This document shows, piece after piece, positions 7,574-54,522 of a stretch of DNA of 64,000 nucleotides. Both the position numbers and the translations under genes were made by a program. Position 1 is the first letter of the stretch; every line of letters begins with the position of its first letter. The notes under the pieces are model-generated. The model did no database searches. It worked only from the letters and a program-made list of their open reading frames with translations, and had not been told where the DNA came from. Source of the DNA: Longimicrobiales bacterium (GTDB taxonomy: Bacteria > Gemmatimonadota > Gemmatimonadetes > Longimicrobiales > RSA9); contig DASVCS010000059.1 of the NCBI GenBank assembly GCA_036381495.1, forward strand, positions 2,352-66,351, given 5' to 3'.

Positions 7574-10009
7574 CTATTCGCTGCGCAGCGCCACCATCGG
7601 ATCCACCCGCGCCGCGCGCCGGGCGGGCAGCCAGCTCGCGAGCAGGGCGATGGCGGCGAGAACCGCCGCGACACCGCCGAAGGTGAGCGGGTCGGTGGGG
7701 CTGACCTCGTAGAGCATGCCGGCCAGGGATCGGGTGAGCAGCAACGCCCCGGCGAGTCCGAAGGCGGCGCCGAGCGCCGCGAGTCGTGCGCCCTGGCCCA
7801 GCACGGCCCGCAGCACCTCGCCGCGGCGCGCGCCGAGCGCGATGCGGATGCCGATTTCGCGTGTACGTTGCGCGACCGTATACGAGATCACGCCGTAGAT
7901 CCCGCTTGCGGCGAGGATCACCGCGAGTGCGGCGAAGGCGCCGAGCAGAGAGAGGTGGAAGCGGCGATCGGCGACGGAGTCGGCGACGAGCGCGTCCATG
8001 GTCGCGAGCTCGGCGACGGGGAGCGCGGGATCGAGCGCGAACACCTGTTCCTTGACGGCCTGCGCGAGTGCGAGTGGATCGCGCGTCGTGCGGACGGCCA
8101 GCGTGAGCGTGCCGTAGGAGTAGACCTGCCGGAAGGCGACATAGAATTCGGGCCGCGGGACCGCGTCGAGCCCGCGGTGGCGGACGTTGCCGACCACGCC
8201 GATGATGTCGCACGCCGGATCGCCCGGATCGTCGCCGATCACGACGCTCTCGCGGAGCGGATCGGAGCCCGGCGGCAGGAAGCGCTGGACGAACGTCTCG
8301 TTGACCACGATCACGCACGGCGCATCCGCGCGGTCCCGTGCGGTGAAGCCGCGTCCCCTGAGGAGCGGGATCCCCATGGTCCGGAAATAGCCTTCGGATG
8401 CGATGCGGAAGTCGGCCTGAGGCAGCGGGTCGGCCAGTGCCTCGGGTGTACCGGGGACGCGGAACGGCATGTCGTGGTCGATGCCGACCGGGTTCATCGG
8501 CAGTGTCGTGACGGCGCCCACGGAGGTCACGCCGGGCAGGCTGCGGACCCGCTCGAGGAGCGACTCGAAGAAGTGGATCTGCCGCGCGTCGTCGGGATAG
8601 CGATTGTCCGGCAGGAAGATCGCCGCGGCGAGCAGGTGGTCGGCGTCGAAGCCGGGATCCACGTTGCTCAGGCGGTGGAAACTGCGGATGAGGAGCCCCG
8701 CGCCGACGAGCAGCACGATCGAGAGCGCGACCTCGGCGACGATCATCGCATGGCGGAGCCGGCGGCCACCGGCGCCCTCGGTCGTGCGGTCGCTCCCTTC
8801 CCTGAGCGCGCTCGCCGGGGCGGCCCGCGAGGCGTTCAGCGCGGGCGCGAGGCCGGCGAGGAGCGCGGTCGCCGCGGCGGCAAACGTCGTGAAGGCGAGG
8901 ACGTCGCCATCGATGCGGATCACGTTCCAGCGCGGGAGCCCTTCGGGCGCGAGTGCGAGGATCAGGTCGAGCCCCCAGACCGCGAGCAACAGCCCGGCCG
9001 CACCGCCGAGCAGCGCGACGAGCCCGCTCTCGACGAGCAGCGCGCGGACCAGCCGCCGGCGGCTCGCGCCCAGCGCGCTCCGGACCGCAATCTCCCGCTG
9101 CCGGTCCGCCGCCCGGGCGAGCAACAGACTCGCGACGTTGGCGCAGGCGATCAGCAGCACGAAGGCGACGGCGCCGAGCAGGACGAGCAGCGCCGGGCGG
9201 GTCTCGCCGATGACGACCTCCCGCGCCGGCTGGACCAGGACGTCCCACCCGCGGTGTGCCTCGGGATACTGCACGGCGAGGCGCCCGGCAATGGTGCTCA
9301 TCTCGTTCTGCGCCTGTTCGAGCGTCGCATCGGCCGCGAGCCGGCCGACCACGTTGAACATGCGCTGTCCGCGGCTGCGCAGCTCGTACGGGAGGTAAGA
9401 GAGCGGCACCCACATGCCGACGTCGTCGTCATCCGGGAAACGGAACCCGGCGGGCATGACGCCGACCACCGCGTACGGCTCGCCGTCCAGGGTGAGCGAG
9501 CGGCCCAGTATGCCGGGATCGCCGCCGAAGCGCCGCTGCCACAGGCCGTGGCTGAGGATGACGATGCGGTGCCGGCCGGGCTGCTCCTCTTCCGGGAGGA
9601 ACGCCCGCCCCAGCGCCGGCTCGACGCCGAGAAGCCGGAACAGGTTGGCGCTCGCTCGGACCGTGCCGATCTCCTCCGGCTCGCCCGCGCCGGTCAACGC
9701 GAAGCCCGAGTAGACCCACGCCGCGAGTTCGTCGAACGTGCGGCTCTGCGCGCGCCAGTCCTGGAACGTCGCGGCGGAGGTCGGCTCGGGCGGGCGGTCC
9801 GGCACCGCCGTCTCCTGCTCCCAGAGCACCATCAGTCGCTCGGGCTCCTTGAACGGCAGCGGCTCGAGCAGCACGGCGTCCACCACGCTGAAGACGGCCG
9901 TGTTGGCGCCGATCCCGAGCGCGAGCGCCAGGACGGCGATCGCGGTGAAGCCCGGACGCTTCAGGAGCTGCCGGGCGGCGTAGCGGAGATCGCGCAGGAT
10001 CGTGTCCAT
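7574..10009 (-). CDS. ADOP-1: double-FtsX ABC permease (ADOP / MacB-like family)
   Basis: N-terminus [44 protein letters not shown]-terminus [17 protein letters not shown], ~811 aa. Start trimmed to ATG 10009 by alignment with paralogs. Confidence 0.88.
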   Translation of the reverse strand: MDTILRDLRYAARQLLKRPGFTAIAVLALALGIGANTAVFSVVDAVLLEPLPFKEPERLMVLWEQETAVPDRPPEPTSAATFQDWRAQSRTFDELAAWVYSGFALTGAGEPEEIGTVRASANLFRLLGVEPALGRAFLPEEEQPGRHRIVILSHGLWQRRFGGDPGILGRSLTLDGEPYAVVGVMPAGFRFPDDDDVGMWVPLSYLPYELRSRGQRMFNVVGRLAADATLEQAQNEMSTIAGRLAVQYPEAHRGWDVLVQPAREVVIGETRPALLVLLGAVAFVLLIACANVASLLLARAADRQREIAVRSALGASRRRLVRALLVESGLVALLGGAAGLLLAVWGLDLILALAPEGLPRWNVIRIDGDVLAFTTFAAAATALLAGLAPALNASRAAPASALREGSDRTTEGAGGRRLRHAMIVAEVALSIVLLVGAGLLIRSFHRLSNVDPGFDADHLLAAAIFLPDNRYPDDARQIHFFESLLERVRSLPGVTSVGAVTTLPMNPVGIDHDMPFRVPGTPEALADPLPQADFRIASEGYFRTMGIPLLRGRGFTARDRADAPCVIVVNETFVQRFLPPGSDPLRESVVIGDDPGDPACDIIGVVGNVRHRGLDAVPRPEFYVAFRQVYSYGTLTLAVRTTRDPLALAQAVKEQVFALDPALPVAELATMDALVADSVADRRFHLSLLGAFAALAVILAASGIYGVISYTVAQRTREIGIRIALGARRGEVLRAVLGQGARLAALGAAFGLAGALLLTRSLAGMLYEVSPTDPLTFGGVAAVLAAIALLASWLPARRAARVDPMVALRSE

Positions 10010-10052
10010 GGTTTGTCGTGGCCGGAGCAGTGTCGTGGCCGGCCGCACGCGG

Positions 10053-10754
10053 CTACCCGCCCGCCGGCGCGCCGGCCCTCGGCGTCGGGGCGTCGCTCTC
10101 GATCCAGCCGTCGCGCAGTTCGACGATGCGGTCGCCGTAGGCCGCGTTCTCCTCCGAGTGCGTGACCTGGATGATCGTCGTCCCCTGCCTGTTCAGCCTC
10201 TTGAACAACTCCATGATCTCGCGGCCCTGCGCCGAGTGCAGATTGCCGGTCGGCTCATCGGCCAGGATCAGCTTGGGATCCGCGATCACGGCGCGCGCCA
10301 CGCCCACGAGCTGCTGCTGGCCGCCCGAGAGCTGGTTCGGGAAGAGATCCTTCTTCCCCACGATCTGGAAGCGGTCGAGCGTGTCGGCGACCAGCGACTG
10401 CCGCTCCTTGCGCGGCACGTTCCGGTACGAGAGCGGAATATCCAGGTTCTCGGCCACGGTCAGCCCGTCCAGCAGGTGGTACTGCTGGAAGACGAAGCCG
10501 ATGTACTGCCGGTTCAACTCCGCGCGCTTCTTCGGCTTCAGCGTGTGCACGGCGTGCCCGAGCAGGTAGTACTCGCCCGACCAGGCGTGGTCCAGCAGAC
10601 CCAGGATACTGAGGAGCGTGGTCTTCCCCGCGCCCGATGGCCCCATGATCGTCACGAACTCGCCTTCGCGGATCGTGAGGTCGATGCGCTGGAGCACGAA
10701 GGTGCGGCCGGCGGGGGTCTCATACGCCTTGCTGATGTTCCTGAGCTCGATCAT
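10053..10754 (-). CDS. ABC transporter ATP-binding protein (MacB/LolD type), ATPase-1
   Basis: Walker [10 protein letters not shown], signature LSGGQQQ, Walker [13 protein letters not shown]. Lies 43 nt upstream of ADOP-1. Confidence 0.9.
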
Positions 10755-10761
10755 CCTGCCT

Positions 10762-10833
10762 CTCTTCCGGAGCTGCTCTCTTCCGGACGTGGTTTCCGCT
10801 CTTGCGGACCTGGTTTCACTGTTTCGCGCTCTT
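10762..10833 (+). repeat. decaying tandem reiterations of the outer part of the 32-nt motif
   Basis: Units are ctcttccggagctg, then ctcttccggacgtggtttccg, then ctcttgcggacctggtttcactgtttcgcg, directly followed by the full copy. The last unit supplies the purine-rich stretch before the ATPase-1 ATG. Confidence 0.8.
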
Positions 10834-10865
10834 GCGGACCTGGTTTCACTTTTTCGATTCGTCCC
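10834..10865 (+). repeat. 32-nt ADOP-spacer motif, copy 1 (start-proximal arm of module M1)
   Basis: GCGGACCTGGTTTCACTTTTTCGATTCGTCCC, one mismatch to the consensus. Confidence 0.95.
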
Positions 10866-10991
10866 AAATCGACACCGCGCCGGGTCGCGTCACCCGCGGC
10901 ACGTCGAGGATCGGCCGGCGCCCATCCGGGCGCCGCAGGTGAGCGGGTTCGATCCGGTCGCCCGCGTCTGCGCGGGTCCTCACCGCCTCCT

Positions 10992-11090
10992 CTAGATGCG
11001 GTTCGCCCGTGGGTTCAGGCCCGCGCGGCCGCTCGCTGCGCTCGGTTCGCGGACACGTACGACTCCGAAGCGACGCGACAACCGCTCTAA
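10992..11090 (-). repeat. ~98-nt CTAG-bounded repeat element, copy 2
   Basis: The reverse complement reads TTAGAGCGGTTGTCGCGTCGCTTCGGAGTCGTACGTGTCCGCGAACCGAGCGC...GAACCGCATCTAG. The first ~60 nt are nearly identical to copy 1; the rest is clearly related. Confidence 0.6.
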
Positions 11091-11491: not shown

Positions 11492-11523
11492 GGGACGAAT
11501 CGAAAAAGTAAAACCAGGTCCGC
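11492..11523 (-). repeat. 32-nt motif, copy 2 (stop-proximal arm of M1)
   Basis: The plus strand reads GGGACGAATCGAAAAAGTAAAACCAGGTCCGC, an exact reverse complement of the consensus with W=T. Confidence 0.95.
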
Positions 11524-11573
11524 CTACTCCAGGTCCGCCTACTCCAGGTCCGCCTACTCCGCCGTCCGCCTAC
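11514..11573 (-). repeat. 15/16-bp tandem repeat x4 at the ADOP-2 stop codon / motif junction
   Basis: The minus strand reads GAG TAG GCGGACGGCGGAG TAG GCGGACCTGGAG TAG GCGGACCTGGAG TAG GCGGACCTGGTTTTAC. Each unit fuses the last gene nucleotides (GAGTAG) to the first 10 nt of the motif. Confidence 0.85.
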
Positions 11574-14038: not shown

Positions 14039-14047
14039 GAGGTCCTC

Positions 14048-16471: not shown

Positions 16472-16513
16472 GATTCCTCCGCGGTTGCGGACCGGGCGTC
16501 GGTATGTCGATCC

Positions 16514-16544
16514 GGGACGAATCGAAAAAGTAAAACCTGGTCCG

Positions 16545-24299: not shown

Positions 24300-24530
24300 G
24301 AGCGCCCCCTCTCGTCATGGTGCTTCCGACAGCGGTTTCGCCGGATCCGTTCCTTCATCGAACCCTGCGGGAGGGACCCCGGCCGCTGAACGGATGACAC
24401 GCGCGGATCCGGATACGAGGCCGGTCGCGGCGAGTCACCGCTCGGCCCCAGGGGCAACGAAGCGGCCCGTGCGGGCCGCGCCGCCGGCACGGCAGGCGGT
24501 GGACTCGACGGAACCCGATCCACCGCTCAG

Positions 24531-24545
24531 GGAAGGCCCGTGCCA
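24531..24545 (-). promoter_or_regulatory. sigma-54-like -24/-12 candidate (TGGCACGGGCCTTCC)
   Basis: The minus strand reads CTGGCACGGGCCTTCCC, a perfect -24 TGGCACG with correct spacing to TT, but the -12 reads TTCC instead of TTGC. About 230 nt upstream of the ADOP-6 ATG. Confidence 0.3.
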
Positions 24546-24824
24546 GCACGGCACGACGCCCCAATCACTTGTATCACAACGAGATCAAACGCAACGTGGG
24601 GAGTGGGGCGGCCGACCGGTCGTCCGCCTGCGGGATCGGCCGTCCCGAAAGCGGACACCCGGGCGCGCCCGGCGACCGAGTTCGAACGCGCACCGCGCCA
24701 CACCATTGCTGCGGGTCCCGTGAAGGGCATCGGCCGACCGGCCGATCTCATGCGGGGGATCGACGGCGGGTGCCGGGCCGCAGCCCGAGGCGACGCCGCG
24801 CCCGCCGCGTCCCGGGCTCGTCGC

Positions 24825-27272: not shown

Positions 27273-27320
27273 AGTCCTCTCACTCGTCTGGCGGACCTGG
27301 CTTTCGTTACCGCGTGGCAA

Positions 27321-27360
27321 ACCTGCCGTCCGGCGGACCTGCCTGCCGTCCGGCGGACCT
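27321..27360 (+). repeat. 20-bp tandem duplication covering the outer end of motif copy 6
   Basis: acctgccgtccggcggacct / gcctgccgtccggcggacct. The second unit runs into the full motif. Confidence 0.85.
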
Positions 27361-32686: not shown

Positions 32687-35113
32687 CTATTCACTGCGGA
32701 GCGCGGTGACCGGATCGATCCTCGTGGCGCGCCGGGCGGGTGCGTACGCAGCCAGCATCGCGGCGGCGAGCAGGGCGAGCGACACGCCGATGAAGGTGCC
32801 GGGATCCGTGGGCGAGACGTCGTAGAGCCAGCCCGCAATGAACCGGCTCAGCGCCAGTGCGCCGGCTGCCCCCGCACCCAGCCCGACCGCCACCATCGCG
32901 ACGGCCCGGCGCGCGACCATCCACAACACGCGGCCCGGCTCCGCGCCGAGGGCGATGCGGATCCCGAGTTCCTGCGTCCGCTGGCCCACCGTGAATGCGA
33001 TGAGTCCGGCAATGCCGGCGACGGAGATCGCCAGCGCGAGCGCGCCGAAGAGGCCGAGCAGCACCGTGGTCAGGCGCGGCGCGGCGATCGACTCGCCGCG
33101 GACCTCCTCGAGCGTCCGGACGAACGCGACGGGTTGCCGGGGGTCGATCGAGTGCACCGCCGCGATCGCCTGGCGGGCGACACTCGTCGGATTCGCGGTC
33201 GTCCGGATCATGAGGTGCGCACCCGTGGGTGGGCTCTCGCTCAGCGCGATGTAGACTTGATCGACGACCTCGCCGGCCAACTCCTCCTGCTTCACGTCGC
33301 CGACCACGCCCACGACCGTCGCCCAGTGCTCGCCATCGCCCGACATGCGCGCGCCGATCGGGTTCTCGTCACCCCAATAGCGACGCGCGAGGGACCGGCT
33401 GATGACCACGACATCCGTGGCATCCTCGTGATCCCGGGCCGTGAACGTCCGACCGCGCAGGAGCGGGATGTGCAGCGTCTCGAAGTACCCGGGACTCACC
33501 ACCTGGTGGTCCGTCCGCGGCCGGATTCCACCCTCGGGCACCGGCCTGCCCGCGATCTGGAACGGGATGCTCGGCACGCCGCCGCCGAGCGGGACGTAGC
33601 CGGCCAGCCCCGCCGAGACGACGCCAGGCAGAGCGCCGACCTTCTCCAGCAGGCGCCGGTAGAACTCACGCCGATCGTCATCGGCGAGGTAGCTGGACCA
33701 GTCCAGGTCGATCCGCATGGTCAGCACGTGCTCCGGGTCGAAGCCCGGATCCACGCGCTGGAGCTTGAGAAAGCTCTGGATCATGAGGCCCGCGCCGATC
33801 AGGAGCATGAACGTCCCCGCCAGTTGCGCCGCGACCAGCGCGCTCCGGATCCGCTGGCGTCCCGCCCCCGCGGTTGCGTGACCGCCCCCCTCCCGCAGCG
33901 ACGACTCGACGCTCCGCCCGAACAGAACCGCCGAGACCAGCCCGATCGCGACGCCGGTCGCGACCGATACGCCCAGCGTGAAGAGCAGGACCCGCCCATC
34001 GACGGCGACTTCGCCCGCGCGCGGCGTGAACCGCGCCGCGAACGCCGCGAGCAGATCCGTCGCATAGACGGCAACGAGCAACCCCAGTGCGCCGCCCGCG
34101 ACGGCCAGCAGCGCACTCTCCGTGAGGAGTTGCCGCGTCAGTCGGCCGCGGCTCGCGCCCAGCGCCGACCGCACCGCAAGCTCCTGCTCGCGCCCCGACA
34201 TGCGCGCGAGCGTCAGGTTCGCCACGTTCGCGCACGCGATCAGCAGAACGAACCCCGCCATGCCGAACAGGACCAGGAACACGGGGCGCGCGGTCCGGGT
34301 CAGCTCCTCACGCAGCGGAACGACCGTCGCACCGAACCCCTCGCCGTCCGGATACGCCTCCGGATGCTCGGCGAACATTGCCCCCGCCACGCGGGCGACA
34401 TCGGCACGCGCACGCTCGATCGTCGTCCCCGGCCGCAACCGCCCGAACACCTGCAACGCGCGCCAGTCGCGGTACCCGGTCCACACGTCGCCGGTCCGGA
34501 ACGGGCACGCATACCACGGCACCCAGACGTCGTTGTTTCCGGGGTAGTCGGGGAGCGGCGGCAGCACGCCTACGATCGTGTGGACCTGGTCGTTCATCTC
34601 GACCGTCCGGCCGATCACGCCGGGATCCCCGCCGAAACGCGTCCGCCAGAACTCGTGGCCCAGCACGAGCACCGGCTCCGCGCCCTCCCGGTTCTCGCTC
34701 GGCAAAAACGTCCGGCCCAGGATCGGCTCGACGCCCAGGACCTCGAAGAAGTCCCACGACACCACGCCCGCCTGCACCCGCTCCGGTACGCCCCGGTCCA
34801 GCAGCGTGAACCACAGCGAATGGTATTCGACCAGGCCGCTCAGCGCCCGCGTACCCTCCCGGTAGTCGCGCAGCTCCTGGACGGAGATCCCCGTGTGGTC
34901 CATCCCCGGCATCGACGCGTACTGCTCCAGCCGCACGAGCCGCTCGCCCTCCTCATAGGGGAGCGGCCGCAACAGCACGCCGCTGATGACACTGAAGATC
35001 GCGCTGTTCGCGCCGATGCCGAGCGCGAGCGTCAGCAGCGCCACCACCGCGAAGCCGGGGTTCCGGCGCAGCGAACGCGCCGCGTAGCGCACGTCCTGTA
35101 GCAGGGTCCGCAT
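32687..35113 (-). CDS. ADOP-10: double-FtsX ABC permease
   Basis: [40 protein letters not shown] ... PARRATRIDPVTALRSE; 808 aa. Its stop lies 9 nt from the ADOP-9 ATG. Confidence 0.9.
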   Translation of the reverse strand: MRTLLQDVRYAARSLRRNPGFAVVALLTLALGIGANSAIFSVISGVLLRPLPYEEGERLVRLEQYASMPGMDHTGISVQELRDYREGTRALSGLVEYHSLWFTLLDRGVPERVQAGVVSWDFFEVLGVEPILGRTFLPSENREGAEPVLVLGHEFWRTRFGGDPGVIGRTVEMNDQVHTIVGVLPPLPDYPGNNDVWVPWYACPFRTGDVWTGYRDWRALQVFGRLRPGTTIERARADVARVAGAMFAEHPEAYPDGEGFGATVVPLREELTRTARPVFLVLFGMAGFVLLIACANVANLTLARMSGREQELAVRSALGASRGRLTRQLLTESALLAVAGGALGLLVAVYATDLLAAFAARFTPRAGEVAVDGRVLLFTLGVSVATGVAIGLVSAVLFGRSVESSLREGGGHATAGAGRQRIRSALVAAQLAGTFMLLIGAGLMIQSFLKLQRVDPGFDPEHVLTMRIDLDWSSYLADDDRREFYRRLLEKVGALPGVVSAGLAGYVPLGGGVPSIPFQIAGRPVPEGGIRPRTDHQVVSPGYFETLHIPLLRGRTFTARDHEDATDVVVISRSLARRYWGDENPIGARMSGDGEHWATVVGVVGDVKQEELAGEVVDQVYIALSESPPTGAHLMIRTTANPTSVARQAIAAVHSIDPRQPVAFVRTLEEVRGESIAAPRLTTVLLGLFGALALAISVAGIAGLIAFTVGQRTQELGIRIALGAEPGRVLWMVARRAVAMVAVGLGAGAAGALALSRFIAGWLYDVSPTDPGTFIGVSLALLAAAMLAAYAPARRATRIDPVTALRSE

Positions 35114-35220: not shown

Positions 35221-35235
35221 GGAAGGGGCGTGCCA
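35221..35235 (-). promoter_or_regulatory. sigma-54-like -24/-12 candidate (TGGCACGCCCCTTCC)
   Basis: The minus strand reads ATTGGCACGCCCCTTCCCTTG, ~108 nt upstream of the ADOP-10 ATG and ~160-200 nt downstream of motif copy 8. The -12 reads TTCC rather than TTGC. Confidence 0.35.
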
Positions 35236-43309: not shown

Positions 43310-43341
43310 GCGGACCAGGTTTTACTTTTTCGATTCGTCCC
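43310..43341 (+). repeat. 32-nt motif, copy 10 (start-proximal arm of M5)
   Basis: GCGGACCAGGTTTTACTTTTTCGATTCGTCCC, exact. Confidence 0.95.
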
Positions 43342-43603
43342 ACAGCGTCACCTGGCTGGCCGATCCGGTAGTGCGCCAACCGGACGTATCCGTGGAACGA
43401 GAGGCGCACGGCTTCGGACACGTGCCCCGGATCGCACAGCCGCCCCGCGACCCGCATTGGCCGCCACGCGAATGCTTGATCCACGCTCGCGTGCCGGCAC
43501 GCACGTCCGGCCCCGGCGCCGCCCTGTGGACCGCCCCACAACCAGGTGGGTCGAGCCGCCGCCAACCGGCTGATATCGGGATAAGCCAATGCCCTGGCGA
43601 TCT

Positions 43604-43635
43604 GGGACGAATCGAAAAAGTAAAACCTGGTCCGC
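43604..43635 (-). repeat. 32-nt motif, copy 11 (stop-proximal arm of M5)
   Basis: The plus strand reads GGGACGAATCGAAAAAGTAAAACCTGGTCCGC, exact. It directly abuts the ADOP-14 TGA stop (43636-43638). Confidence 0.95.
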
Positions 43636-46119: not shown

Positions 46120-46349
46120 GATCTGACCCGTGCGCTTCCGCTCCTTTCGTTCCACTTCGACCGGCCCGGACGCTCCATCCCGGAGTCCGCCGCGCCGCCC
46201 CCGTCTCGCTCGCCTCTCCTCCCGCTCGACCGAACGGCCTGCCCCGCCGCCGGCACCCGCGCCCGCCGTTCCGCCCTTGCCCCCTATCGTCAGCTCCATG
46301 GCCGATCTCGCTATGGACACCCTCCGACCGGCGAGGTTATCCTTCGCCC

Positions 46350-47156
46350 ATGGACGCCGAGACCCGCGAACGCTTCGACCAGCTCACCGCTGCTTTGCAA
46401 GCGGCGGAGGCGCGCTGGAACGAACGCTTCGACCAGCTCGCCGCCTCGCTCGAAGCGGCGGAGAAACGTTGGGACCAGCGTTTCCAGGAGGCCGAGGCGC
46501 GCTGGGACGCGCGTCTCCGGGAAGCCGAGGCGCGTTGGGATGAGCGTCTCCAGGAAGCCGAGGCACGCTGGGATGCGCGTCTCCGGGAGGCCGAGGCACG
46601 CTGGGATGAGCGTCTCGATAAGTTCGCCGCGATGGTCGCCCGGGGGTTCGAGTCGGAGGCGGAGCAGGCGAACCATCGCTTCGCCCGCATCGAAGAGCGG
46701 TTCGCCCGCATCGAAGAGCGGCTCGACCGCATCGAGGAGCGCCTCGACCGCATCGAGGAGCGCCTCGATCGCGTGGAGGCACGCCTCGACGGCGTGGAGA
46801 CGCGCCTCGATCGGCTCGAGCACCGCGTCGAGGCGATGGACGTCAAGTTCACCGAGCAGTTCATCGCGGTCGATGAACAGTTCCGGACGCTGAGCATACG
46901 TCTGACCGGGTTCGAAAACCGTGTGACGATGACGGTGACGGACACCCGCAAAGAAGTCGAGATCCTCGCGCAGCACGTCGCGTCACTCGACGCGTTGTTC
47001 GTAGGGCTCGCCGACCGGGTGAGCAAGCTCGGCGGACGCGTCGGCGTGATCGAGGAAGGCATGGCGGATCTCAGCGGCCGGATCGACGGGCTCGCCGACG
47101 ACATGCGCCTGCGGTTCCGCCTTGTGGATGAGCGGTTGGCGGTCCTGGCCACCTGA
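46350..47156 (+). CDS. coiled-coil repeat protein of unknown function
   Basis: 268 aa from ATG 46350 (GAGG 13 nt upstream) with high GC3. Contains 11-residue repeats (EAEARWDxRLx) followed by heptad repeats (RIEERLD). It is the only plus-strand gene inside the array. Confidence 0.65.
   Translation: MDAETRERFDQLTAALQAAEARWNERFDQLAASLEAAEKRWDQRFQEAEARWDARLREAEARWDERLQEAEARWDARLREAEARWDERLDKFAAMVARGFESEAEQANHRFARIEERFARIEERLDRIEERLDRIEERLDRVEARLDGVETRLDRLEHRVEAMDVKFTEQFIAVDEQFRTLSIRLTGFENRVTMTVTDTRKEVEILAQHVASLDALFVGLADRVSKLGGRVGVIEEGMADLSGRIDGLADDMRLRFRLVDERLAVLAT
46488..46619 (+). repeat. 33-bp tandem repeat x4 inside the coiled-coil gene
   Basis: gaggccgaggcgcgctgggacgcgcgtctccgg and three near-identical units, encoding EAEARWDARLR / EAEARWDERLQ. 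Confidence 0.85.
46686..46832 (+). repeat. 21-bp tandem repeat x7 inside the coiled-coil gene
   Basis: cgcatcgaagagcggttcgcc and six progressively diverging units, encoding RIEERFA / RIEERLD / RVEARLD heptads. Confidence 0.85.
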
Positions 47157-47399
47157 GCCGGCATCGGCCCGGGCCGCGGTTTCATCCGGAATTCGGCGAA
47201 CCCGTGCTGCATCGAATGCCACCGAAGCTCGAGCGGGGTCGTGGGACTCGCGTCGAAGAGCAGCGCCCGCAACGCGGAACGCAGGTCGTGCATCATGTCG
47301 ACCACCTCCGCTGCCGGCGGATTCGCTCCGCTTGCGACCACTGGATCACTCGCGAGCCCATGATCGCGCCGGCCGGTCTCCAACCGGGCGGCGTAGCCG

Positions 47400-49841
47400 T
47401 CACTCCTCCCGCAACACCACCATCGGGTCCACCGTAGCCGCCCGCCGTGCGGGGAGGTACGTCGCGAATGCCGCTACGGCCGCCAGCGCGATCGGCACGG
47501 CCGCGAACGTCACGGGGTCCGTCGGGCTCACGCCGTAGAGCAGGCTCTCGATCAGCCGGGTCAGTGCGAACGCGGCGACGATGCCGATGCCGAGGCCGAT
47601 CGCGACCGGCACCATCCCCTGGCGTACGAAGAGTCGCACGACCTCATCGCGGCGCGCGCCGAGCGCCATGCGGATCCCGATCTCGCCCGTCCGCTGCCGT
47701 ACGGTGTAGGAGACGATACCGTAGATCCCGATCGCGGTGAGTACGAGCGCCAGCCCCGCAAAGAGGCCGAGGAGCACTGCGTTGAACCGCTCCTGCGCGA
47801 CCGAGGCGCCGATCACCTCGGGCATGCTCCGGAACCGCGGCAGCGGCATGCGCGGCTCGAGCGCGCGGATCGCGTCGAGGACGGCCGGTCCGACCACCGC
47901 GCCTCCCTGCACCCGCACGGCGATCGCACCAAGCGCGGCGACAGCCCAGCCATCCGGCGCCTGCGCACGCGGGATGTACATCGTTTCGGATGGCGCCCGA
48001 TCGAGTCCCAAGCCGTGTACATCTCCGACGACGCCCACGATCTCGCGCGGCGGATCGTCGAAGCCGGGGATGAGTTCTTTCCCCTGGTAGGTGCCGATGT
48101 CGATCCGCTGGCCGATCGGGTTTTGTCCCGGGAAGTACTTCCGGGCGAACGTCTCGTTGACGATGACGACGGGCGGCATGCGGTCGTCGTCGCGCGCGGT
48201 GAAGGCGCGCCCGCGCACCAGCGGGATCCGCAGGGTCTCGAAGTACCCCGGCGTGATGCCGCGCCACTGGACTGCGCCGAAGGTGGCATCCGGGCGGCCG
48301 ACCACCGTCATCGGAAAGTTGTACTGACCCTGGAGCGGCAGTGTCGATGTGGCCGCGGCCGAGACGACGCCCGGGATGGCACGGATCCGTTCGAGCACCT
48401 GGCGCTCGAACTGCCAGACCCGGGCCGCCGTCCCGTACTCCGCCGGCGTGCGCCGGAATTCGACCGCGAGCACGCCCTCCGGCTCGAAGCCGGCGCTGAC
48501 CGAGCGCAGCTCGAAGAAGCTCGTGATGAGCAGCCCCGCGCCGGTCAGCAGCACCACGGCCAGCGCGGCCTCGGATGCGGCGAAGAGCGAGCGGACCCGC
48601 CTCCGGCTACGCTCCCCGGTCCGGCGCGCGCCACCGCGCAACGCGCCGCTCAGGTCGACGCGGAACGCGTGCGCTGCCGCCGTCAGCCCGAACGCGATCC
48701 CGGTCGCGAGCGCGACGGCCAGCGTGAAGCCGAGCACTCGCCCGTCCAACCCGATCTCCTCCATCCGCGGCAAACCGGATGGCGCGAGCGCGAGCAGCCC
48801 GTCCACGCTCCACTCCCCCACCACCAGCCCCAGCGCCGCGGCGCCGAGCGCGAGCAGCACGCTCTCCGTCAGGAGCTGCCGCACGATGCGCCCACGGCCG
48901 GCGCCGATCGCGGCGCGGACCGCCATCTCGCGCTGCCGGCTCGTGGCACGGGCGAGCATGAGGTTCGCCACGTTCACGCACGCGATGAGCAGCACGAAGC
49001 CGACCGCGCCCAGCAGGATCCAGAGCGTCCGCTCGAGGCCACCGACGAAGATGTCCTGGTACCCGAGGATCGCGACACCGACCTCGCTCTCGCCCATGAG
49101 TTCCGGATGCTCCTCCCGGAACCGCGCCGAGACCGCCGCCAGGTCGGCCCGCGCCTGCTCGAGCGTCACACCCGGCCGGAGCCGCGCACGGACCTGGTAG
49201 TTTTGCCCCTTATCCCGCGGGTCCGGGTCGAGACGGAACGGCACCACGAAATCCGTGTACCCGGGCGCCTCGGGGAAACGGAACCCGGGCGGCATCACCC
49301 CGACCACCGCGTGCGGCACGCCGCCGAGCCGCACCGTGCGACCGAGCACCGCCGGATCCGCGTCGAAGCGGGTGCGCCAGACACCATCGCTCAATACGAC
49401 GACGGGCGGCGCGCCGGGCCGGTCCTCCTCCGGCAGGAACGCCCGCCCGAGCGCCGGAGCGATCCCGTTGACCCGGAAGAAATCCGCGGTCGCGCGCAGC
49501 CCTCGCACCTCGTCCGGGACCGCACCCTCACCCAGCTCCGTCGCCCAGCCCCGTTCCGTGCTCACGCCGTCGAAGACCCGCGCGTGCTCGCGGATGTATT
49601 CGTACGTGTACGCGGTGACGGTGGAGTTCACGCCTCCGCTGTTCCATTCCCAGCCCAGGTAGACGAGCCGATCCGGTTCCGGGTACGGCAGCGGCCGCAG
49701 CAGCACGCCATTGACCACACTGAAGACCGCCGTGTTCGCGCCGATCCCGAGCGCGAGCGTGAGCATCGCGGCCAGCGTGAACCCGGGGCTCTTCACCAAC
49801 GTGCGGACAGCGTAGCGGAGATCACTGAACAGCGTTTCCAT
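47400..49841 (-). CDS. ADOP-15: double-FtsX ABC permease
   Basis: [40 protein letters not shown] ... [20 protein letters not shown] 49841 is preferred (AGGTGG 6 nt upstream) over the GTG at 49850. Confidence 0.88.
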
Positions 49842-50127
49842 CGCGGCCACCTATTCGTCGAGGGGGTCGGGTTGCGGAGTCATTGCGAATCTCGCCGCAT
49901 CGGGCGTGCGGCAGGGCTCACGGTTTCGGTTCATCTCGAGAGCGGGCCGGGGTGGCCGGCCCGGTCACGCGGCAACCCGGTGCGGCCGCCAAACACCCCG
50001 TGGCTGTGCGAGCCGAGCCACGCACGGGCGTCCGACCGGAGTCTCCCGACCACGTCCCCGGCCGACATGGTCATGGCGGACGCGGCACGAACCGGGGCGA
50101 ACCTGAGGAGCCCGACCCGGTCCGCGA

Positions 50128-50295
50128 TTCATCCCTGAACGCCACCACCGGATCCACCCGTACCGCCCGCCGCGCCGGCAGGCAACTCGCCACGAGCGCA
50201 ACGGCGGCCAGCAGCAGCGGGACCATGGCGAACGCCGCAGGATCGGTCGCAGCGACGCCGTACAGCAGACTCGACAGGATGCGCGTCACGCACAT
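50128..50295 (-). pseudogene. relic of the C-terminal end of an ADOP permease
   Basis: Encodes TRILSSLLYGVAATDPAAFAMVPLLLAAVALVASCLPARRAVRVDPVVAFRDE, matching the last TM helix and tail of the paralogs. There is no upstream permease body. The expected stop is replaced by TCG, followed by CGGACCGGGT, which resembles the start of the 32-nt motif. Confidence 0.7.
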
Positions 50296-50398
50296 CCTGG
50301 AACAGCGAATTCAAGGCAAGGCTCTCGACGCGAGTGGATGCCGCCCGTGGCCCGCGACCGGGCCTCCGGCCGCGGACCCCGTCCTCGGGACCCGAACC

Positions 50399-51136
50399 TC
50401 ACGCCAGCTCGAAACCATGTTCCTGAAGCTGTTCCGCGACCTGCCCCGCCTCGTCCTTCACGACCTGGCCGTCGAAGAGATGGATGCTGCGCTCCGCGTA
50501 GCGCTCGTAGCGCGGGTCGTGCGTGACCATGCAGATCGTCGCGCCGCCCTGGTGCAACTCGCGCAGCAGGTCCATCACCGCCTCACCGTTCTTCGAATCC
50601 AGGTTCCCCGTCGGCTCGTCGGCAAGCAGGATCAACGGGTCGCCGCTGATCGCGCGCGCCACCGCCACGCGCTGCTGCTGACCGCCGCTGAGCTGCGCGG
50701 GATAATGGCGCATCCGGTGCGCCATCCCCACCCGCTCCAGCGCCGTCTCGACCCGCCGCTTCCGCTCCGCGCTCGGCATCCCGCGGTACGTGAGCGGCAG
50801 CTCGACGTTCTCGTAGACCGTCAGGTCGCCGATCAGGTTGAACGCCTGGAAAATGAAGCCGATCTGGCGGTTGCGGATGTAGGCGCGCTGCGACGCCGTC
50901 AACCCGGAAACCGGATTGCCATCCAGCAGGTACGTCCCTTCCGTCGGCGAATCCAGGAGCCCGAGGATCGAGAGCAACGTCGTCTTGCCGCACCCCGACG
51001 GACCGGCAATCGCGACGTATTCGCCGCTGTTGATCTCGAGATGGACCCCCGAGAGCGCGTGCGTCTCGACCTCGTCCGTGTAGAAGACCTTCCGGATCGC
51101 GTCGAGGCGGATCAACGGCTTCGTCCCGTTCTGCAT
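50399..51136 (-). CDS. ABC transporter ATP-binding protein (MacB/LolD type), ATPase-2
   Basis: Walker A GPSGCGKTT, signature LSGGQQQRVAVARAI, Walker [13 protein letters not shown]; 245 aa. Confidence 0.9.
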   Translation of the reverse strand: MQNGTKPLIRLDAIRKVFYTDEVETHALSGVHLEINSGEYVAIAGPSGCGKTTLLSILGLLDSPTEGTYLLDGNPVSGLTASQRAYIRNRQIGFIFQAFNLIGDLTVYENVELPLTYRGMPSAERKRRVETALERVGMAHRMRHYPAQLSGGQQQRVAVARAISGDPLILLADEPTGNLDSKNGEAVMDLLRELHQGGATICMVTHDPRYERYAERSIHLFDGQVVKDEAGQVAEQLQEHGFELA

Positions 51137-51507
51137 CTCGTTCTCCTTGTCACGGTGGCACGTTCCACTCTGCTGCCCCGCCCGGCGCGGGTTTCAGGCG
51201 TGGGAATCCAGGGCCGTAGAGGCCGCGAAGGCACTCGCTCGAAACACCCCCAACCCCAGTCCGCTCCGGAGCCGTACCCCATTGCGGTGTTGCGGCACTT
51301 CCTCGCGGACCTTGCGTCCTCTACGGCCACAGTGTTCGACGAAGGCGACGCTCGAGACGCGCCGCCCCGTCCTTTGGTCCTGTCTGTTTCCGGTACTCGA
51401 CCGGCATGGAGATCGCCGCCGTACGCGGCGCACCCCCGCGCGGTTTCATCCGTACGCCCGGCGCACCGGCGGCGCAATCCGCCGACCGCGTGCGCGTCGC
51501 CGCGACT

Positions 51508-52752
51508 TCACCGCAGCCGCACCCGATCGACGGCATCCCAGGCCGACATGTCGGACAGGATCACGATGTCGCCGACCTGCAACCCCTCGCGGACCTCGAT
51601 CGTGTTCACCGATGCCCGGCCGAGGCGCACGTTCACGCGGATCGCCGCATCCCCGTCGTCGACCACCTTGAAGAGCCCGACCGTGCTCTCCGGCTGACCG
51701 TACCCCGGCCGCCCGACGAACAGCACGTCATCGAGACGCTCGATCTCGATCGTGCCGTCCACGCTCAGGTCCGGCCGCGCACCCGGCGGCAGCGCCTCAT
51801 CGAGCGCGACGTCGACGGTCACCGTCCCGTCCTGGACCGCCGGGTCGATCCGGGATACATGCCCCTTGATGAGCGAGTTCCGCGTGTCGATCGTCGCCTT
51901 CTGCCCGATCGCCACGTCCTTCGCCTGCGTCTCCGGGATCCGCAGCTCCGCCTTCAGCCGGCCGGGCTGCACCACCTTCGCCAGCGTCATCCCGGGCGTG
52001 ACCCATTGGCCGACTTCGAGCGGCAACTCCTGTAGCACGCCATCCGCGCCCGCCCGGACGTGCATGGCCTCGACCTGCGCCCGCTGGAACTCGGCGACCG
52101 CGCGCAGTCGGTCGACCTGAGCCTGCTGCACCGCGAGCTGGTCGTCCACCGACTCGGACAGGATCTCGAGGCGCTTCCGCTCGATCTCGAGCTTCGTCTT
52201 GAATTCTTCCGCCTGGTCCTGCGAACGCGCCAGCTCGTTCGGCGCGATCAACCCCTCCTTCGCGAGCTGCCGGTTCGTCTCGACGTTCCGCAGCGCCTCA
52301 CGGTACGCGCTCTCCGCCGTCGCGACCATGGCCTCCTGGTTCAACCGCTGCGTCTCGAGCTGCGTCCGCAGACTCACCAGCGTCGCCCGCGCCGCCGTCA
52401 ACTGCTGTTCCGCACCCAGCGCCTGGATGTTGACGTCCGGGTTGCTGAGCTCCAGGAGCACCGTCTCGCGCGTCACCTCCATGCCGGGCTCCGCGAGGAT
52501 CCGCTCGACGCGGCCCGGCGTCAGCGTCGAGATCCACTGGATCCGTTCCGGCACCAGCTTCCCGGGACCACGGACCTCGCGGACCATCGTGCCTCGCTGC
52601 ACCGTATCCGTCCAGATCGTGGCGCGCTCGACCGTCGGCGCCGCCGGCTCCAGCCGCGAGAGCGCCACCGTGGTCAGCACCACGGCCGCCAGGCCGCCTC
52701 CGACATAGAAATAGCGCCGGCGATTCTTCGGTTTCTCGCGTGGGATATCCAT
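51508..52752 (-). CDS. periplasmic efflux adaptor (HlyD/MacA membrane-fusion family)
   Basis: Has an N-terminal anchor (YFYVGGGLAAVVLTTVAL). A long coiled-coil hairpin follows (QLTAARATLVSLRTQLETQRLNQ ... QLAVQQAQVDRLRAVAEFQRAQ), then barrel/MP-like C-terminal blocks. Start trimmed to ATG 52752. Confidence 0.8.
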   Translation of the reverse strand: MDIPREKPKNRRRYFYVGGGLAAVVLTTVALSRLEPAAPTVERATIWTDTVQRGTMVREVRGPGKLVPERIQWISTLTPGRVERILAEPGMEVTRETVLLELSNPDVNIQALGAEQQLTAARATLVSLRTQLETQRLNQEAMVATAESAYREALRNVETNRQLAKEGLIAPNELARSQDQAEEFKTKLEIERKRLEILSESVDDQLAVQQAQVDRLRAVAEFQRAQVEAMHVRAGADGVLQELPLEVGQWVTPGMTLAKVVQPGRLKAELRIPETQAKDVAIGQKATIDTRNSLIKGHVSRIDPAVQDGTVTVDVALDEALPPGARPDLSVDGTIEIERLDDVLFVGRPGYGQPESTVGLFKVVDDGDAAIRVNVRLGRASVNTIEVREGLQVGDIVILSDMSAWDAVDRVRLR

Positions 52753-52833
52753 GGCTTCACCTTCTCGGGTTGGGGCACGCCACGAGGCGCGCACCGCCCG
52801 GCGATGATGCGCCGGCTTCGATGCGTGGTCCAG

Positions 52834-52849
52834 GCCAAGGACCGTGCCA
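52834..52849 (-). promoter_or_regulatory. sigma-54-like -24/-12 candidate (TGGCACGGTCCTTGGC)
   Basis: The minus strand reads CTGGCACGGTCCTTGGCC, ~85 nt upstream of the adaptor ATG. The -24 is perfect, but the -12 reads TTGG(C), which is either one mismatch or a 1-nt spacing shift. Confidence 0.35.
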
Positions 52850-52983
52850 GAATGTTCGCATAATACAACGCATTGTCGTAAACCCGTTTACAGGCGCACC
52901 GGCCGCCGCTCCCGCCCGCCGCGGTGACCGCTCGTGGGATGCAGCATCCCGAAAGCGGACACATCCGGCCGGCCGCATCGCCG

Positions 52984-54522
52984 TCACTGCCCGCCGGAAT
53001 CCGGGCGGAGTCGACGGCCCACGGCAGCTTCGAGCGCCGCCAGCGCCTCGTGGAAGCCGTACACCGCGTCGAGACGCGCGCGGTCCGCCTCCGCCTTCTG
53101 CGTCTCCGCCTGACTCAGCTCGACGAAGGTGGCGACGCCCAGCCGGTAGCGTTCGCGCGCCAGGCGGAGTTGCTCGGCGGCCGTCGCGGCGTTCTTCTCC
53201 TCCAGCATGGCCGAGCGGTAGGCCGCCTTCAGATCGAGTAGCGCCGTGGCCACGGCGGTGCGGCGGCGCAGTTCCTCCGCGCGCAGGTCGTAGCGCGCAT
53301 CGGCCTCGGCCGCTTGCGCCTCTTCGAGTTGTCGCCGCGCCGAGAGCCCCTGGAAGAGCGGCAGCGAGATCTGGAGCGAGGCGCTGAACGGCTGCTCCGT
53401 GAATTTGAACGGGAAGCGGCGGTTGTCGGCCAGTACGGCATCGATCCCCTCCTGCGTCAGTGCATACTGGGAGCAGTCGAGGGGGTACCCGGGGAGCGGC
53501 TGAGACAGCCCCGCCGAGATGAGGTTCTGCGTCTCGCAGGATTCGATGCGGGCCTCCGCGCGGCTCTTCGCGCCGTCGATCAGGTACTGGTCATCCGCCG
53601 CCACCATCCGCGAGAAGCCGGACCACCCGGCGGAGAACCTGAGCGTCGGGAGGAACGAACCGCGGGTCGACCGCACGGCCGCGCGCCGGGCCCGCTCCTC
53701 CGCGCGCAGCGATTCGATCTGCGGATGCGCCGCAAGCGCCTCGTCCACCAGCTCGTCGCGGGTCCACGACGGCTCGAAGACCTCGAACGACGTCGTCAGC
53801 CGGACGTCCGCGTCCAGATCGGTCCCGAGCTGCTCCATCAGGCGCAGCCGCTCCGTATCGTAGAGGTTCTCAGCCTGCACCAGCGCGACCTCGGCGCGGC
53901 CGCGCTCGACCTGCGCCTGCATGGCCTCGAGCGGCGGCGCCGCGCCGACCCGCACGCGAGCCTCCGCGAGTTCGAGGTTCTGTGATGCGCTCTCGAGCTG
54001 CTGCCGCGCCAGCGTGACACCATCCTGCGCCCGCAACACCGCGATGTACTGGCGCGTCACATCCGCGCGCAGCGTGAAGGCGGCCGCGTCGATCCGCGAC
54101 TCGACCGCCTCGCGACTCGCCCGCGCCTCCCCCATCCCGAACAGCGTGGCGGCGCTGAGCTGGAGCGACATGCCGATCGAATAGCTCGAGAAATAGTACG
54201 CAGGCGTCGCACCCAGACCGAGGTCCGACCCCGTGAACGACCCCACCAACGCCGGGCCACCGCCCTCGTAGCGGAAGCCCAGGCCCGTGTTCGCTCGCGG
54301 CAGCCACGCCGAGTACGCCTCACGCACCCGCCAGTCCGCCGGACCCGCATCGTTGTCCTGCTTCAGGAACGCCGGGTTGTGCTCTCGCGCCAGCGCGATC
54401 GCCTCCTCCAACGTCAACGTCACCGGCGTCTCCTGCGCCCGAGCCGCGGCGAACGGCAGACACGCCGGGGCGAGCAGCGCACCCGCCAATGCCGCCGCGC
54501 GACTCCGCACCGTCAGCCTCAT
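52984..54522 (-). CDS. TolC-family outer membrane efflux protein
   Basis: 512 aa with a signal peptide (AALAGALLAPACLPFAAARA). Two repeated helical halves carry typical TolC blocks (LTLEEAIALAREHNP, AEARVRVGAAPPLE, RERYRLGVATFVELSQAE). A GGAGGAG RBS precedes the ATG. Confidence 0.85.
   Translation of the reverse strand: MRLTVRSRAAALAGALLAPACLPFAAARAQETPVTLTLEEAIALAREHNPAFLKQDNDAGPADWRVREAYSAWLPRANTGLGFRYEGGGPALVGSFTGSDLGLGATPAYYFSSYSIGMSLQLSAATLFGMGEARASREAVESRIDAAAFTLRADVTRQYIAVLRAQDGVTLARQQLESASQNLELAEARVRVGAAPPLEAMQAQVERGRAEVALVQAENLYDTERLRLMEQLGTDLDADVRLTTSFEVFEPSWTRDELVDEALAAHPQIESLRAEERARRAAVRSTRGSFLPTLRFSAGWSGFSRMVAADDQYLIDGAKSRAEARIESCETQNLISAGLSQPLPGYPLDCSQYALTQEGIDAVLADNRRFPFKFTEQPFSASLQISLPLFQGLSARRQLEEAQAAEADARYDLRAEELRRRTAVATALLDLKAAYRSAMLEEKNAATAAEQLRLARERYRLGVATFVELSQAETQKAEADRARLDAVYGFHEALAALEAAVGRRLRPDSGGQ

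Follow-up and report, generated by a model that had tools for sequence, protein, structure and literature searches.

Fifteen ADOP permease genes with a conserved set of ATPase, adaptor and two-component genes in a Longimicrobiales genome

Results

Gene content of the locus

The window analysed here (the whole stretch of 64,000 nucleotides, positions 2,352 to 66,351 of contig DASVCS010000059.1, assembly GCA_036381495.1, from a soil-type Longimicrobiales bacterium) carries a long array of genes for permeases of the acidobacterial duplicated orphan permease (ADOP) family. Fifteen intact open reading frames (ORFs) of 800-830 amino acids (aa), named P1 to P15, occupy positions 7574-49841, all on the minus strand. 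In order of transcription the locus consists of a TolC-family outer-membrane channel gene, a periplasmic adaptor gene of the HlyD/MFP family, a first ABC ATPase gene (ATP1), an ADOP relic, P1, a plus-strand gene for a coiled-coil protein, P2-P14, a second ABC ATPase gene (ATP2), and P15. Directly downstream of P15, on the same minus strand, follow the genes for a sigma54-dependent response regulator and then a histidine kinase. The tally is one channel, one adaptor and two ATPase genes per 15 permeases. The original prediction had described 15 intact paralogs of about 800 aa on one strand, behind one TolC gene and one MacA gene. The paralogs and both upstream genes were confirmed; the two intact ATPase genes inside the array had been overlooked. 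For comparison, 80 external loci (designated L) were retrieved from reference genomes with an ADOP alignment; they are mostly from Acidobacteriota, with some from Gemmatimonadota. The genes of the window are as follows.

52984..54522, minus strand: TolC-family outer-membrane channel, 512 aa; signal-peptide-like N-terminus; three stretches of Pfam OEP (E = 8e-53)
51508..52755, minus strand: periplasmic adaptor, HlyD/MFP family; Pfam HlyD_3 and HlyD_D23
50399..51136, minus strand: ATP1, ABC ATPase type 1, 245 aa; clade of the MacB nucleotide-binding domain (NBD), LolD, FtsE and DarD
47400..49841, minus strand: P1, ADOP, 813 aa; TIGR03434 955 bits
43636..46119, minus strand: P2, ADOP, 827 aa, start set by alignment; 864 bits
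40757..43249, minus strand: P3, ADOP; 913 bits
38288..40711, minus strand: P4, ADOP; 985 bits
35756..38164, minus strand: P5, ADOP; 878 bits
32687..35113, minus strand: P6, ADOP; 946 bits
30203..32677, minus strand: P7, ADOP, 9-bp gap from P6; 971 bits
27749..30163, minus strand: P8, ADOP; 1022 bits
24825..27272, minus strand: P9, ADOP; 1018 bits
21837..24299, minus strand: P10, ADOP; 827 bits
18996..21401, minus strand: P11, ADOP; 920 bits
16545..18947, minus strand: P12, ADOP; 991 bits
14048..16471, minus strand: P13, ADOP; 861 bits
11570..14038, minus strand: P14, ADOP; 894 bits
10053..10754, minus strand: ATP2, ABC ATPase type 2, 233 aa; 46% identical to ATP1
7574..10009, minus strand: P15, ADOP, 43-bp gap from ATP2; 1017 bits
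5965..7356, minus strand: sigma54-dependent response regulator; receiver, AAA+ Sigma54_activat and HTH_8 domains
4355..5650, minus strand: histidine kinase, 431 aa; two predicted transmembrane (TM) helices, cytoplasmic PAS, HATPase_c

The adaptor also matches TIGR01730 (106 bits; cut-off 94.9), and its start codon was placed at MDIPREKPK by comparison with locus L049. Matches of the channel protein to TIGR01844 and TIGR01845 fall under the cut-offs of these models.

The permeases belong to the ADOP family and have a type VII fold

All 15 permeases match the ADOP profile TIGR03434 from end to end (826-1022 bits against a curated cut-off of 622.3 bits; profile positions 1-3 to 802-803) and contain the Pfam domains MacB_PCD and FtsX, of which P1, the copy we detailed, has two stretches each. 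The proposed check by hidden Markov models thus placed every copy in the family. A sensitive profile scan over every stop-to-stop frame in all six frames returned exactly 15 full-length copies and one fragment. The 15 copies are without frameshift, and their GC content by codon position is typical of coding sequence. No ADOP contains an ABC_tran domain. The equivalog model of MacB matches the ADOPs at most at E = 3e-41, far under its 966-bit cut-off, and the YbbP model matches one of the 15 copies, weakly.

Hydropathy analysis yielded eight hydrophobic membrane cores per ADOP. In the AlphaFold2 model of P1 (pLDDT 81, pTM 0.72) there are eight long helices and two mixed alpha/beta periplasmic domains, the first inserted after TM1 (before TM2) and the second after TM5 (before TM6), and the linker between the halves (residues 392-418) is short, cytoplasmic and of low confidence. 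Foldseek searches with this model returned Escherichia coli YbbAP first, over the full length, and then MacB, a MacB-like transporter of Streptococcus pneumoniae, LolCDE and BceAB; the Foldseek probability was 1.00 for YbbAP, MacB, LolCDE, BceAB and HrtBA. The best sequence matches in a profile search of solved structures were MacB and LolC/E. An ADOP is thus predicted to be a direct 4+4 TM fusion of two MacB-type units. The two halves differ in sequence, and each ADOP has two coupling loops that are similar to one another. Features of type VII ABC transporters are present: four-TM units whose large periplasmic domain sits between the first two helices, cytoplasmic coupling helices, and an ATPase partner from the MacB-NBD/LolD/FtsE clade. 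We place the locus in the ADOP family and in the type VII ABC superfamily; in the strict sense it is none of MacB, YbbP, BceB or DarB.

Pairwise protein identity among the 15 copies is 37-54% in end-to-end alignment. Conservation is concentrated in TM1 (73%), in the helices at the two ends of the protein (N-terminal 62%, C-terminal 71%) and in the two cytoplasmic coupling loops (61% and 56%); cytoplasmic and TM parts together show 50-73% identity and the periplasmic domains 35-36%. The near-invariant termini quoted in the original prediction were reproduced by the alignment consensus, and the central periplasmic regions, which had been called very different by eye, are indeed the divergent part. 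Window copies compared with ADOPs of other genomes gave the same conservation profile. Since the termini are equally conserved against ADOPs of unrelated genomes, their conservation is a family trait and provides no evidence of local co-adaptation; conservation specific to this locus was thereby ruled out. The conserved termini are consistent with a common docking surface for the ATPases.

Two ATPase types, a regulator and a kinase accompany the array

Walker A, signature, Walker B and H-loop are intact in ATP1, and the motifs of ATP2 are intact as well. For both proteins the best NCBIfam matches are DarD, MacB NBD, LolD and FtsE (E = 1e-53 to 1e-75). ATP1 precedes P1 by 557 bp, and ATP2 precedes P15 by 43 bp. 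The two fall into separate orthogroups, with about 350-400 bits within and about 190 bits between them. ATPase genes occur in 22 of the 80 external loci, and in none of the 80 is there more than one gene of the ATP1 type or of the ATP2 type. ATP1-like genes usually adjoin the adaptor gene and ATP2-like genes are usually distal; both orthogroups are conserved across two phyla, and genes of the two types are adjacent in L031 and L036. In the original ADOP concept, "orphan" denotes the lack of a fused or adjacent ABC ATPase gene, a descriptive property that stands outside the profile definition. That property fails here, with two ATPase genes within the array. The ATPases are the only partners that the permeases strictly need.

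Orthologues of the response regulator (71-73% identity) end ADOP arrays in L049, L082, L083 and L084, and high-scoring homologues are found in L005, L024 and L031. The two TM helices of the histidine kinase are joined by a loop of about 7 residues (LWTGDYTPKVQWT), and there is no periplasmic sensor domain. This N-terminal TM-loop-TM arrangement is conserved in L049 (6474-7784), L005 (18923-20242) and L024 (16570-18045), with the loop consensus LWTG-D/S/P-F/Y-x-x-K-V/L-Q/V-WT; kinase orthologues are 65-75% identical. More than 8000 relatives of the kinase are present in public data, many of them labelled NtrY-like. The kinase resembles intramembrane-sensing kinases.

The layout recurs, with conserved companions and divergent permeases

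Thirteen of the 42 external loci longer than 20 kb hold four to eight full-length ADOPs within about 22 kb. A start with adaptor and ATPase genes, followed by a co-directional run of ADOPs, was found in L008, L021, L023, L025, L044, L063 and L075. More generally, many genomes of both phyla combine an adaptor gene, an ATPase gene and several ADOPs, often joined by the second ATPase type and the same regulator/kinase pair. Close homologues of both regulator and kinase are present in L049, L005, L024 and L031. A search with the kinase only returned a 100% identical protein in a Longimicrobiales metagenome-assembled genome (MAG), and all three kinase orthologues looked up on long contigs stood with a sigma54 regulator at the downstream end of a MacB_PCD-FtsX-MacB_PCD-FtsX gene run. 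The synteny comparison proposed earlier thus showed that the layout recurs and that regulator and kinase are linked to the arrays. The layout is common in Acidobacteriota and Gemmatimonadota, and the array is a large example of a widespread type. Only its size stands out, at the upper end of the sampled range. The claim that such a single-locus layout is unusual did not hold, and a cluster of 10 paralogs has been published (PMC3914696).

Companion proteins and permeases behave differently in these comparisons. Against the Gemmatimonadota locus L049, identity is 65% for the adaptor, 75% for ATP1, 72% for the regulator and 65% for the kinase, and the single ADOP of L049 has at most 45.5% identity to any of the 15. 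Against L082, L083 and L084, identity is 71-73% for the regulator and 69-75% for the kinase, with ADOPs at most 50%; ATP2 is 69% identical to the ATPase of L084. The best ADOP match between relatives is 44-50%. Arrays hold as few as 1 ADOP (L049) or 2 (L082) and as many as the 15 found here. Orthologous ADOPs fixed beside ATP1 or ATP2 were looked for and none were found, the ATPase-adjacent ADOPs having 42-44% mutual identity. On these identities, the permeases diverge much faster than their companion proteins.

Two variant permeases were observed in the external loci. L084 encodes a half-size permease of 401 aa (7390-8595), with one MacB_PCD and one FtsX domain, just upstream of the regulator gene, and L082 a 937-aa ADOP with an insertion (4172-6985).

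The paralogs are not recent tandem duplicates

Adjacent genes of the array encode proteins with 43.5% identity, as compared to 43.2% for distant ones. Identity among the window copies is 43.2%, and 40.8% to 177 ADOPs from other genomes. A rough neighbour-joining tree mixes window copies with external ADOPs, and seven of the 15 have an external relative closer than any in the window. From the all-against-all alignment and tree suggested with the original prediction, recent tandem duplication was rejected, as neighbours are no more alike than other copies and the copies interleave with those of other genomes. At about 45% protein identity, synonymous sites between the paralogs are saturated.

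Relic, coiled-coil gene and transcription units

The array had been described as co-directional with two decayed copies. All 15 ADOP genes do lie on the minus strand, but the block is interrupted by a plus-strand gene. One relic was confirmed; the other supposed decayed copy (46120-47399) is the antisense of this plus-strand gene, and the all-frame profile scan detected no second decayed ADOP copy.

50128..50314 (approximate), minus strand: ADOP relic between ATP1 and P1; TIGR03434 profile positions 752-807, E = 7e-23
46350..47156, plus strand: coiled-coil protein gene, 268 aa, inside the array; weak coiled-coil/SMC-like matches only

The relic consists of an N-terminal piece, LNSLFQDVR, joined out of frame to the last 56 codons, and the usual stop codon is gone. 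Its C-terminal fragment is carried by the stop-to-stop frame 50074-50310, and it has 75% DNA identity to the 3' end of P12. Because the N-terminal piece abuts the C-terminal fragment in another frame, the relic is read as an internally deleted ADOP gene. This points to a sixteenth ADOP gene that was probably lost by a clean internal deletion, not by gradual decay.

The coiled-coil protein contains two runs of near-perfect tandem repeats (EARWDERL/EARWDARL and RIEERLD). GC by codon position is coding-like in its gene (0.77/0.42/0.84), as compared to 0.49/0.71/0.82 in the antisense ORF, and a sigma70-like site lies just upstream (46314-46343). No homologue of the gene was found among the 80 external loci.

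Short gaps of 9-123 bp link P3-P5, P6-P8, P11-P14 and ATP2-P15, and gaps of 370-815 bp, which are non-coding with GC flat over codon positions, part these groups of genes. The opposite-strand gene and the long non-coding gaps cut the array into several predicted transcription units. Three of the gaps, 51137-51507 (371 bp), 49842-50398 (557 bp) and 24300-24824 (525 bp), were inspected individually; codon-position GC is flat in each, and neither Rfam matches nor 30-bp repeats were found in them. Their identified content is the ADOP relic in the 557-bp gap and a promoter-like motif in the 525-bp gap. Genes of the PadR type are often found ahead of ADOPs. Here, small regulator genes were rejected as gap content, as there are no coding-like ORFs and GC is flat across codon positions. 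Across the whole window no known RNA family matched Rfam at the gathering threshold. A "tRNA-???" with a 4-base anticodon reported by ARAGORN at 34538-34612 (plus strand), antisense within P6, is most likely a false positive. The window has 71% GC. The array is not on an obvious genomic island: no transposase was seen, and the base composition is even.

Inverted repeats in the gaps of the array

An AT-rich repeat of 30-33 bp (GGACCAGGTTTTACTTTTTCGATTCGTCCC, GCGGACCAGGTTTTACTTTTTCGATTCGTCCC) occurs in 11 copies in the window, all in gaps of the array, as five inverted pairs around 260-620 bp and one solo copy.

43312..43633, minus strand: inverted-repeat element 1; perfect 30-33 bp repeats GCGGACCAGGTTTTACTTTTTCGATTCGTCCC; starts 2 nt past the P2 stop codon
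35399..35749, minus strand: inverted-repeat element 2, intergenic, between P5 and P6
27355..27747, minus strand: inverted-repeat element 3, intergenic, between P8 and P9
21434..21805, minus strand: inverted-repeat element 4, intergenic, between P10 and P11
10836..11521, minus strand: inverted-repeat element 5, the longest (686 bp), between P14 and ATP2
16514..16543, minus strand: solo 30-bp repeat, 1 nt past the P12 stop codon

The inverted repeats are perfect over 30-33 bp. Most pairs, like the solo copy, have their stop-proximal repeat 1-6 nt past an ADOP stop codon; the distance is 31 nt after P10 and 48 nt after P14. The interiors have diverged, and as RNA the elements form long hairpins (fold z-score -9). 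No target-site duplication is visible at the elements. The 30-nt repeat pattern had no match in 185,579 reference genomes, and the 22-nt core had one chance match in JGI metagenomes, which fell within coding sequence on an unrelated contig. Beside the outer ends of two elements (11522-11569 and 10755-10835; 27273-27354) the terminal stretch of the repeat is partly tandem-duplicated, as GTAGGCGGACCTGGA three times, GTGAAACCAGGTCCGCAAGAGCG twice and CAGGTCCGCCGGACGGCAGG twice; slippage or several rounds of partial insertion may have produced these copies. That the 30-bp repeats bind the regulator was rejected, their positions relative to the promoter-like motifs being inconsistent. Integron-like cassettes were also rejected: there is no integrase, and the repeats lie 260-620 bp apart. 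The elements could mark or stabilise transcript ends, or represent a lineage-specific mobile element.

Promoter-like motifs and possible sigma54 control

Five promoter-like sites were identified in the window.

54604..54616, minus strand: TGGTACGGTCCTT, 82 nt upstream of the TolC start; sigma54-like -24 element, non-canonical -12 element
52837..52849, minus strand: TGGCACGGTCCTT, upstream of the adaptor gene
35223..35235, minus strand: TGGCACGCCCCTT, 110 nt upstream of P6
24533..24545, minus strand: TGGCACGGGCCTT, in the 525-bp gap upstream of P10
11188..11203, minus strand: TGGCACGCTTCTCCCC, in the gap upstream of ATP2, inside the fifth inverted-repeat element

Allowing one mismatch, the pattern TGGCACG-N2-CCTT was found four times against 0.83 expected, and all four sites are intergenic, on the minus strand, upstream of TolC, the adaptor gene, P6 and P10. 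The form shared by the five sites is TGGCACG-N4-(T/C)T, and a motif ACAA-N4-TTR lies 20-35 nt upstream of each of them. This second motif loosely resembles an IHF site. Related motifs are present upstream of the adaptor genes of L049 (TGGCACGGTTCTTCCC) and L036 (TGGCACGGTCTTTGAC), and L064 and L072 have canonical sigma54 sites, TGGCACG-N4-TTGCA/T, ahead of ADOPs. The motifs and the conserved enhancer-binding regulator point to possible sigma54 control of the array.

Discussion

A proposed regulated export or extraction system with a constant engine

We consider it probable that these genes specify a regulated ABC system for export or extraction, of type VII (the MacB superfamily), in which a constant engine is combined with fast-diversifying permeases. 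This reading is built on gene content, families, fold, conservation pattern, recurrence and the linkage of the regulator. Its constant part has one gene each for the outer-membrane channel, the adaptor, ATP1, ATP2, the sigma54-dependent regulator and the loop-less membrane kinase; its variable part is the set of 15 ADOPs, each of which has two MacB-like four-TM units in one chain and no ATPase domain. Five further properties are proposed: sharing of the ATPases, which has good support, use of the duct, sigma54 control, a mode of sensing, and diversity of substrates. Each ADOP would recruit two ATPase subunits through its N-terminal helix, two coupling loops and C-terminal helix. Binding and hydrolysis of ATP would drive mechanotransmission to the divergent periplasmic domains, which may capture differing substrates from the periplasm or from the outer leaflet of the inner membrane. 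Some of the ADOPs, if not all, would hand their substrate to the adaptor and the TolC-like duct. The two-component system would switch on several transcription units through sigma54-type promoters, and the kinase may respond to the activity of the transporter, in the way that BceS responds to BceAB.

One scaffold with many permeases was already the idea of the original prediction. In favour of it are the single channel and adaptor, the two ATPases, the recurring order of adaptor, ATPase and a variable number of ADOPs, and the difference in identity between accessory proteins (65-75%) and ADOPs (at most about 50%). Several observations weigh against the reading as a whole. In six external loci the gene upstream of the adaptor gene does not encode an outer-membrane channel, so the TolC-adaptor neighbourhood found here is not the rule. 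In L082, where the locus reaches 8 kb upstream of the regulator gene, this stretch contains neither an ATPase nor an adaptor gene. As channel genes are missing beside the adaptor in these six loci, and some kinase-linked arrays have no adaptor or ATPase gene nearby, the duct may serve only some ADOPs. YbbAP, structurally the closest solved system, works without adaptor or outer-membrane channel (PMC12646458). For sigma54 control, the -12 elements in the window (TTCC, TTGG, TTTC) are without the canonical GC, no rpoN gene is present in the window, and motifs precede only 4-5 of about 9 inferred transcription units; upstream of external genes TGGCA[CT][GA] is only about 2-fold enriched (15 vs 8 expected).

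A further reading, "one engine, many heads", is more speculative, and we regard it as rather unlikely: a conserved ATPase pair (possibly a heterodimer), an adaptor with its channel and a transporter-coupled sigma54 two-component system would together serve interchangeable, rapidly diversifying permeases.

Alternative explanations

The best of the alternatives, which we nonetheless regard as rather unlikely, is that the array holds two separate transporters and passengers. TolC, the adaptor, ATP1 and the deleted ADOP or P1 would form one pump, ATP2 and P15 would form a second, duct-less transporter, and the other 13 ADOPs would have accumulated by recombination and use ATPases encoded elsewhere or work in some other way. 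The spacing of the genes fits this view, with ATP2 only 43 bp upstream of P15 and ATP1 following the adaptor gene, and so does the splitting of the array by the opposite-strand gene and long non-coding gaps. The ADOPs and regulator/kinase pair of L082, with neither ATPase nor adaptor gene within 8 kb upstream of the regulator, count in the same direction, as does the concept behind TIGR03434, in which ADOPs are usually not adjacent to ATPase genes. Dedicated pairs are, however, hard to reconcile with the finding that the ATPases are conserved and the ADOPs adjacent to them are not conserved orthologues (42-44%). Moreover, arrays hold anything from 1 to 15 ADOPs and never more than one ATPase of each type, and the regulator/kinase pair tracks the array, not the ATPase-adjacent gene.

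Less likely still is that ATP1 and ATP2 form an obligate heterodimer, with one subunit for each half of a pseudo-heterodimeric ADOP and a single heterodimer serving all 15. Such a pairing would be in keeping with two orthogroups that are clearly apart, are found in two phyla at no more than one each per array and have adjacent genes in L031 and L036, and with ADOP halves that differ in sequence. It is opposed by the complete catalytic motifs of both ATPases and by the resemblance between the two coupling loops of one ADOP. L049 has only the ATP1 type, and the stretch of L084 that was examined only the ATP2 type. LolCDE uses a LolD homodimer. The fused permease of YbbAP pairs with a single ATPase species, YbbA (PMC5985334, PMC12646458).

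That the array is an assembly artefact, with dispersed paralogs joined in a MAG, or a graveyard of pseudogenes is very improbable. In its favour, the sequence comes from a MAG, the gaps contain recurring 30-bp repeats, and long ORFs arise easily by chance at 71% GC. Against it, DNA identity between paralogs is 60-88% in the best-conserved segments, which are no longer than 300 nt, and there is no long near-identical repeat, so that repeat-driven mis-assembly is unlikely; similar arrays are found on many independent contigs (one larger than 5 Mb), and all 15 copies match the profile over their full length without frameshift and with coding-like codon-position GC.

Comparison with known systems

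Clusters of ADOPs are already known. Psychroflexus torquis ATCC 700755 has a highly expressed, 42-kb cluster of 10 ADOP paralogs on genomic island 43 (PMC3914696), and Dyadobacter genomes contain 28-33 ADOP copies each (PMC11573002). The P. torquis cluster resembles the present one in family, in the presence of divergent paralogs within tens of kb, in the association with ATP-binding transporter genes and in the efflux function suspected from the MacB periplasmic domain. It differs in that here 15 copies are intact, the host belongs to the Longimicrobiales (Gemmatimonadota), there is no obvious genomic island, and the conserved companions are known: a channel, an adaptor, ATPases of two orthogroups and a two-component system of the sigma54 type. 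In the literature searched, ADOPs appear in passing mentions only, and no functional work was found. What is new is the conserved set of companions and the much faster divergence of permeases than of companions.

With MacAB-TolC (PDB 5nik) the system shares the fold of the permease unit (four TM helices and a periplasmic domain), the ATPase clade and, as the expected mechanism, mechanotransmission. Genes for an adaptor (HlyD_3, HlyD_D23, TIGR01730) and a channel (OEP) are also present. MacB carries an N-terminally fused ATPase domain and acts as a homodimer (PMC5985334); an ADOP, unlike MacB, is a fused double permease with a separately encoded ATPase, and 15 permeases are present per one adaptor and one channel. 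YbbAP-TesA (PDB 9ge6; PMC12646458) is alike in its single-chain double permease, two periplasmic domains and separate ATPase. YbbP has two extra linking TM helices, 10 in total, and BceB has a single extracellular domain (PMC5985334). ADOPs, unlike YbbP, have eight predicted TM helices and a short linker, and sequence identity between them is only 14%. YbbAP also has a TesA partner and neither adaptor nor channel, and no TesA-like gene was seen here.

The linkage to a two-component system recalls the Bce modules, in which a loop-less kinase receives its signal from a type VII transporter (PMC4513084, PMC10314905). BceAB-BceRS and the present locus both place a transporter beside a two-component system, and in both the kinase has two TM helices with hardly any loop outside the cell membrane; this analogy suggests that the transporter may report to the kinase (flux sensing). 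There are also clear differences: BceB has 10 TM helices and one extracellular domain as compared to eight and two in an ADOP, and Bce systems are described in Gram-positives, whereas the channel and adaptor genes here imply an outer membrane. BceR is an OmpR-type regulator. The regulator of the present locus is, in contrast to Bce, a sigma54 enhancer-binding protein, and its kinase also has a cytoplasmic PAS domain.

The darobactin exporter DarBCD (NF038007, NF038008, NF038010) similarly combines an adaptor and a separate ATPase with an FtsX-type permease that is long (777 positions). Both ATPases have DarD as their best NCBIfam model. All scores are far under the curated cut-offs, at 251-252 bits as compared to 375 for DarD and 74 as compared to 450 for DarC, and DarB matches a stretch of only 68 residues. 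There are no biosynthetic genes here.

Implications

In Acidobacteriota and Gemmatimonadota, ADOPs make up one of the largest families of paralogs. The locus and the survey name candidate partners for these "orphan" permeases: two ATPase types, one adaptor, and a sigma54 regulator with a loop-less kinase. Several questions thereby become testable, namely how one ATPase set could power many permeases, whether mixed ATPase pairs act on fused double permeases, and whether a Bce-like signal from transporter to kinase exists in bacteria with an outer membrane. If one engine does serve many heads, soil Gemmatimonadota and Acidobacteriota would gain a combinatorial repertoire to expel or extract envelope-active compounds, and the system would be a Gram-negative, many-permease analogue of the Bce-type flux-sensing modules.

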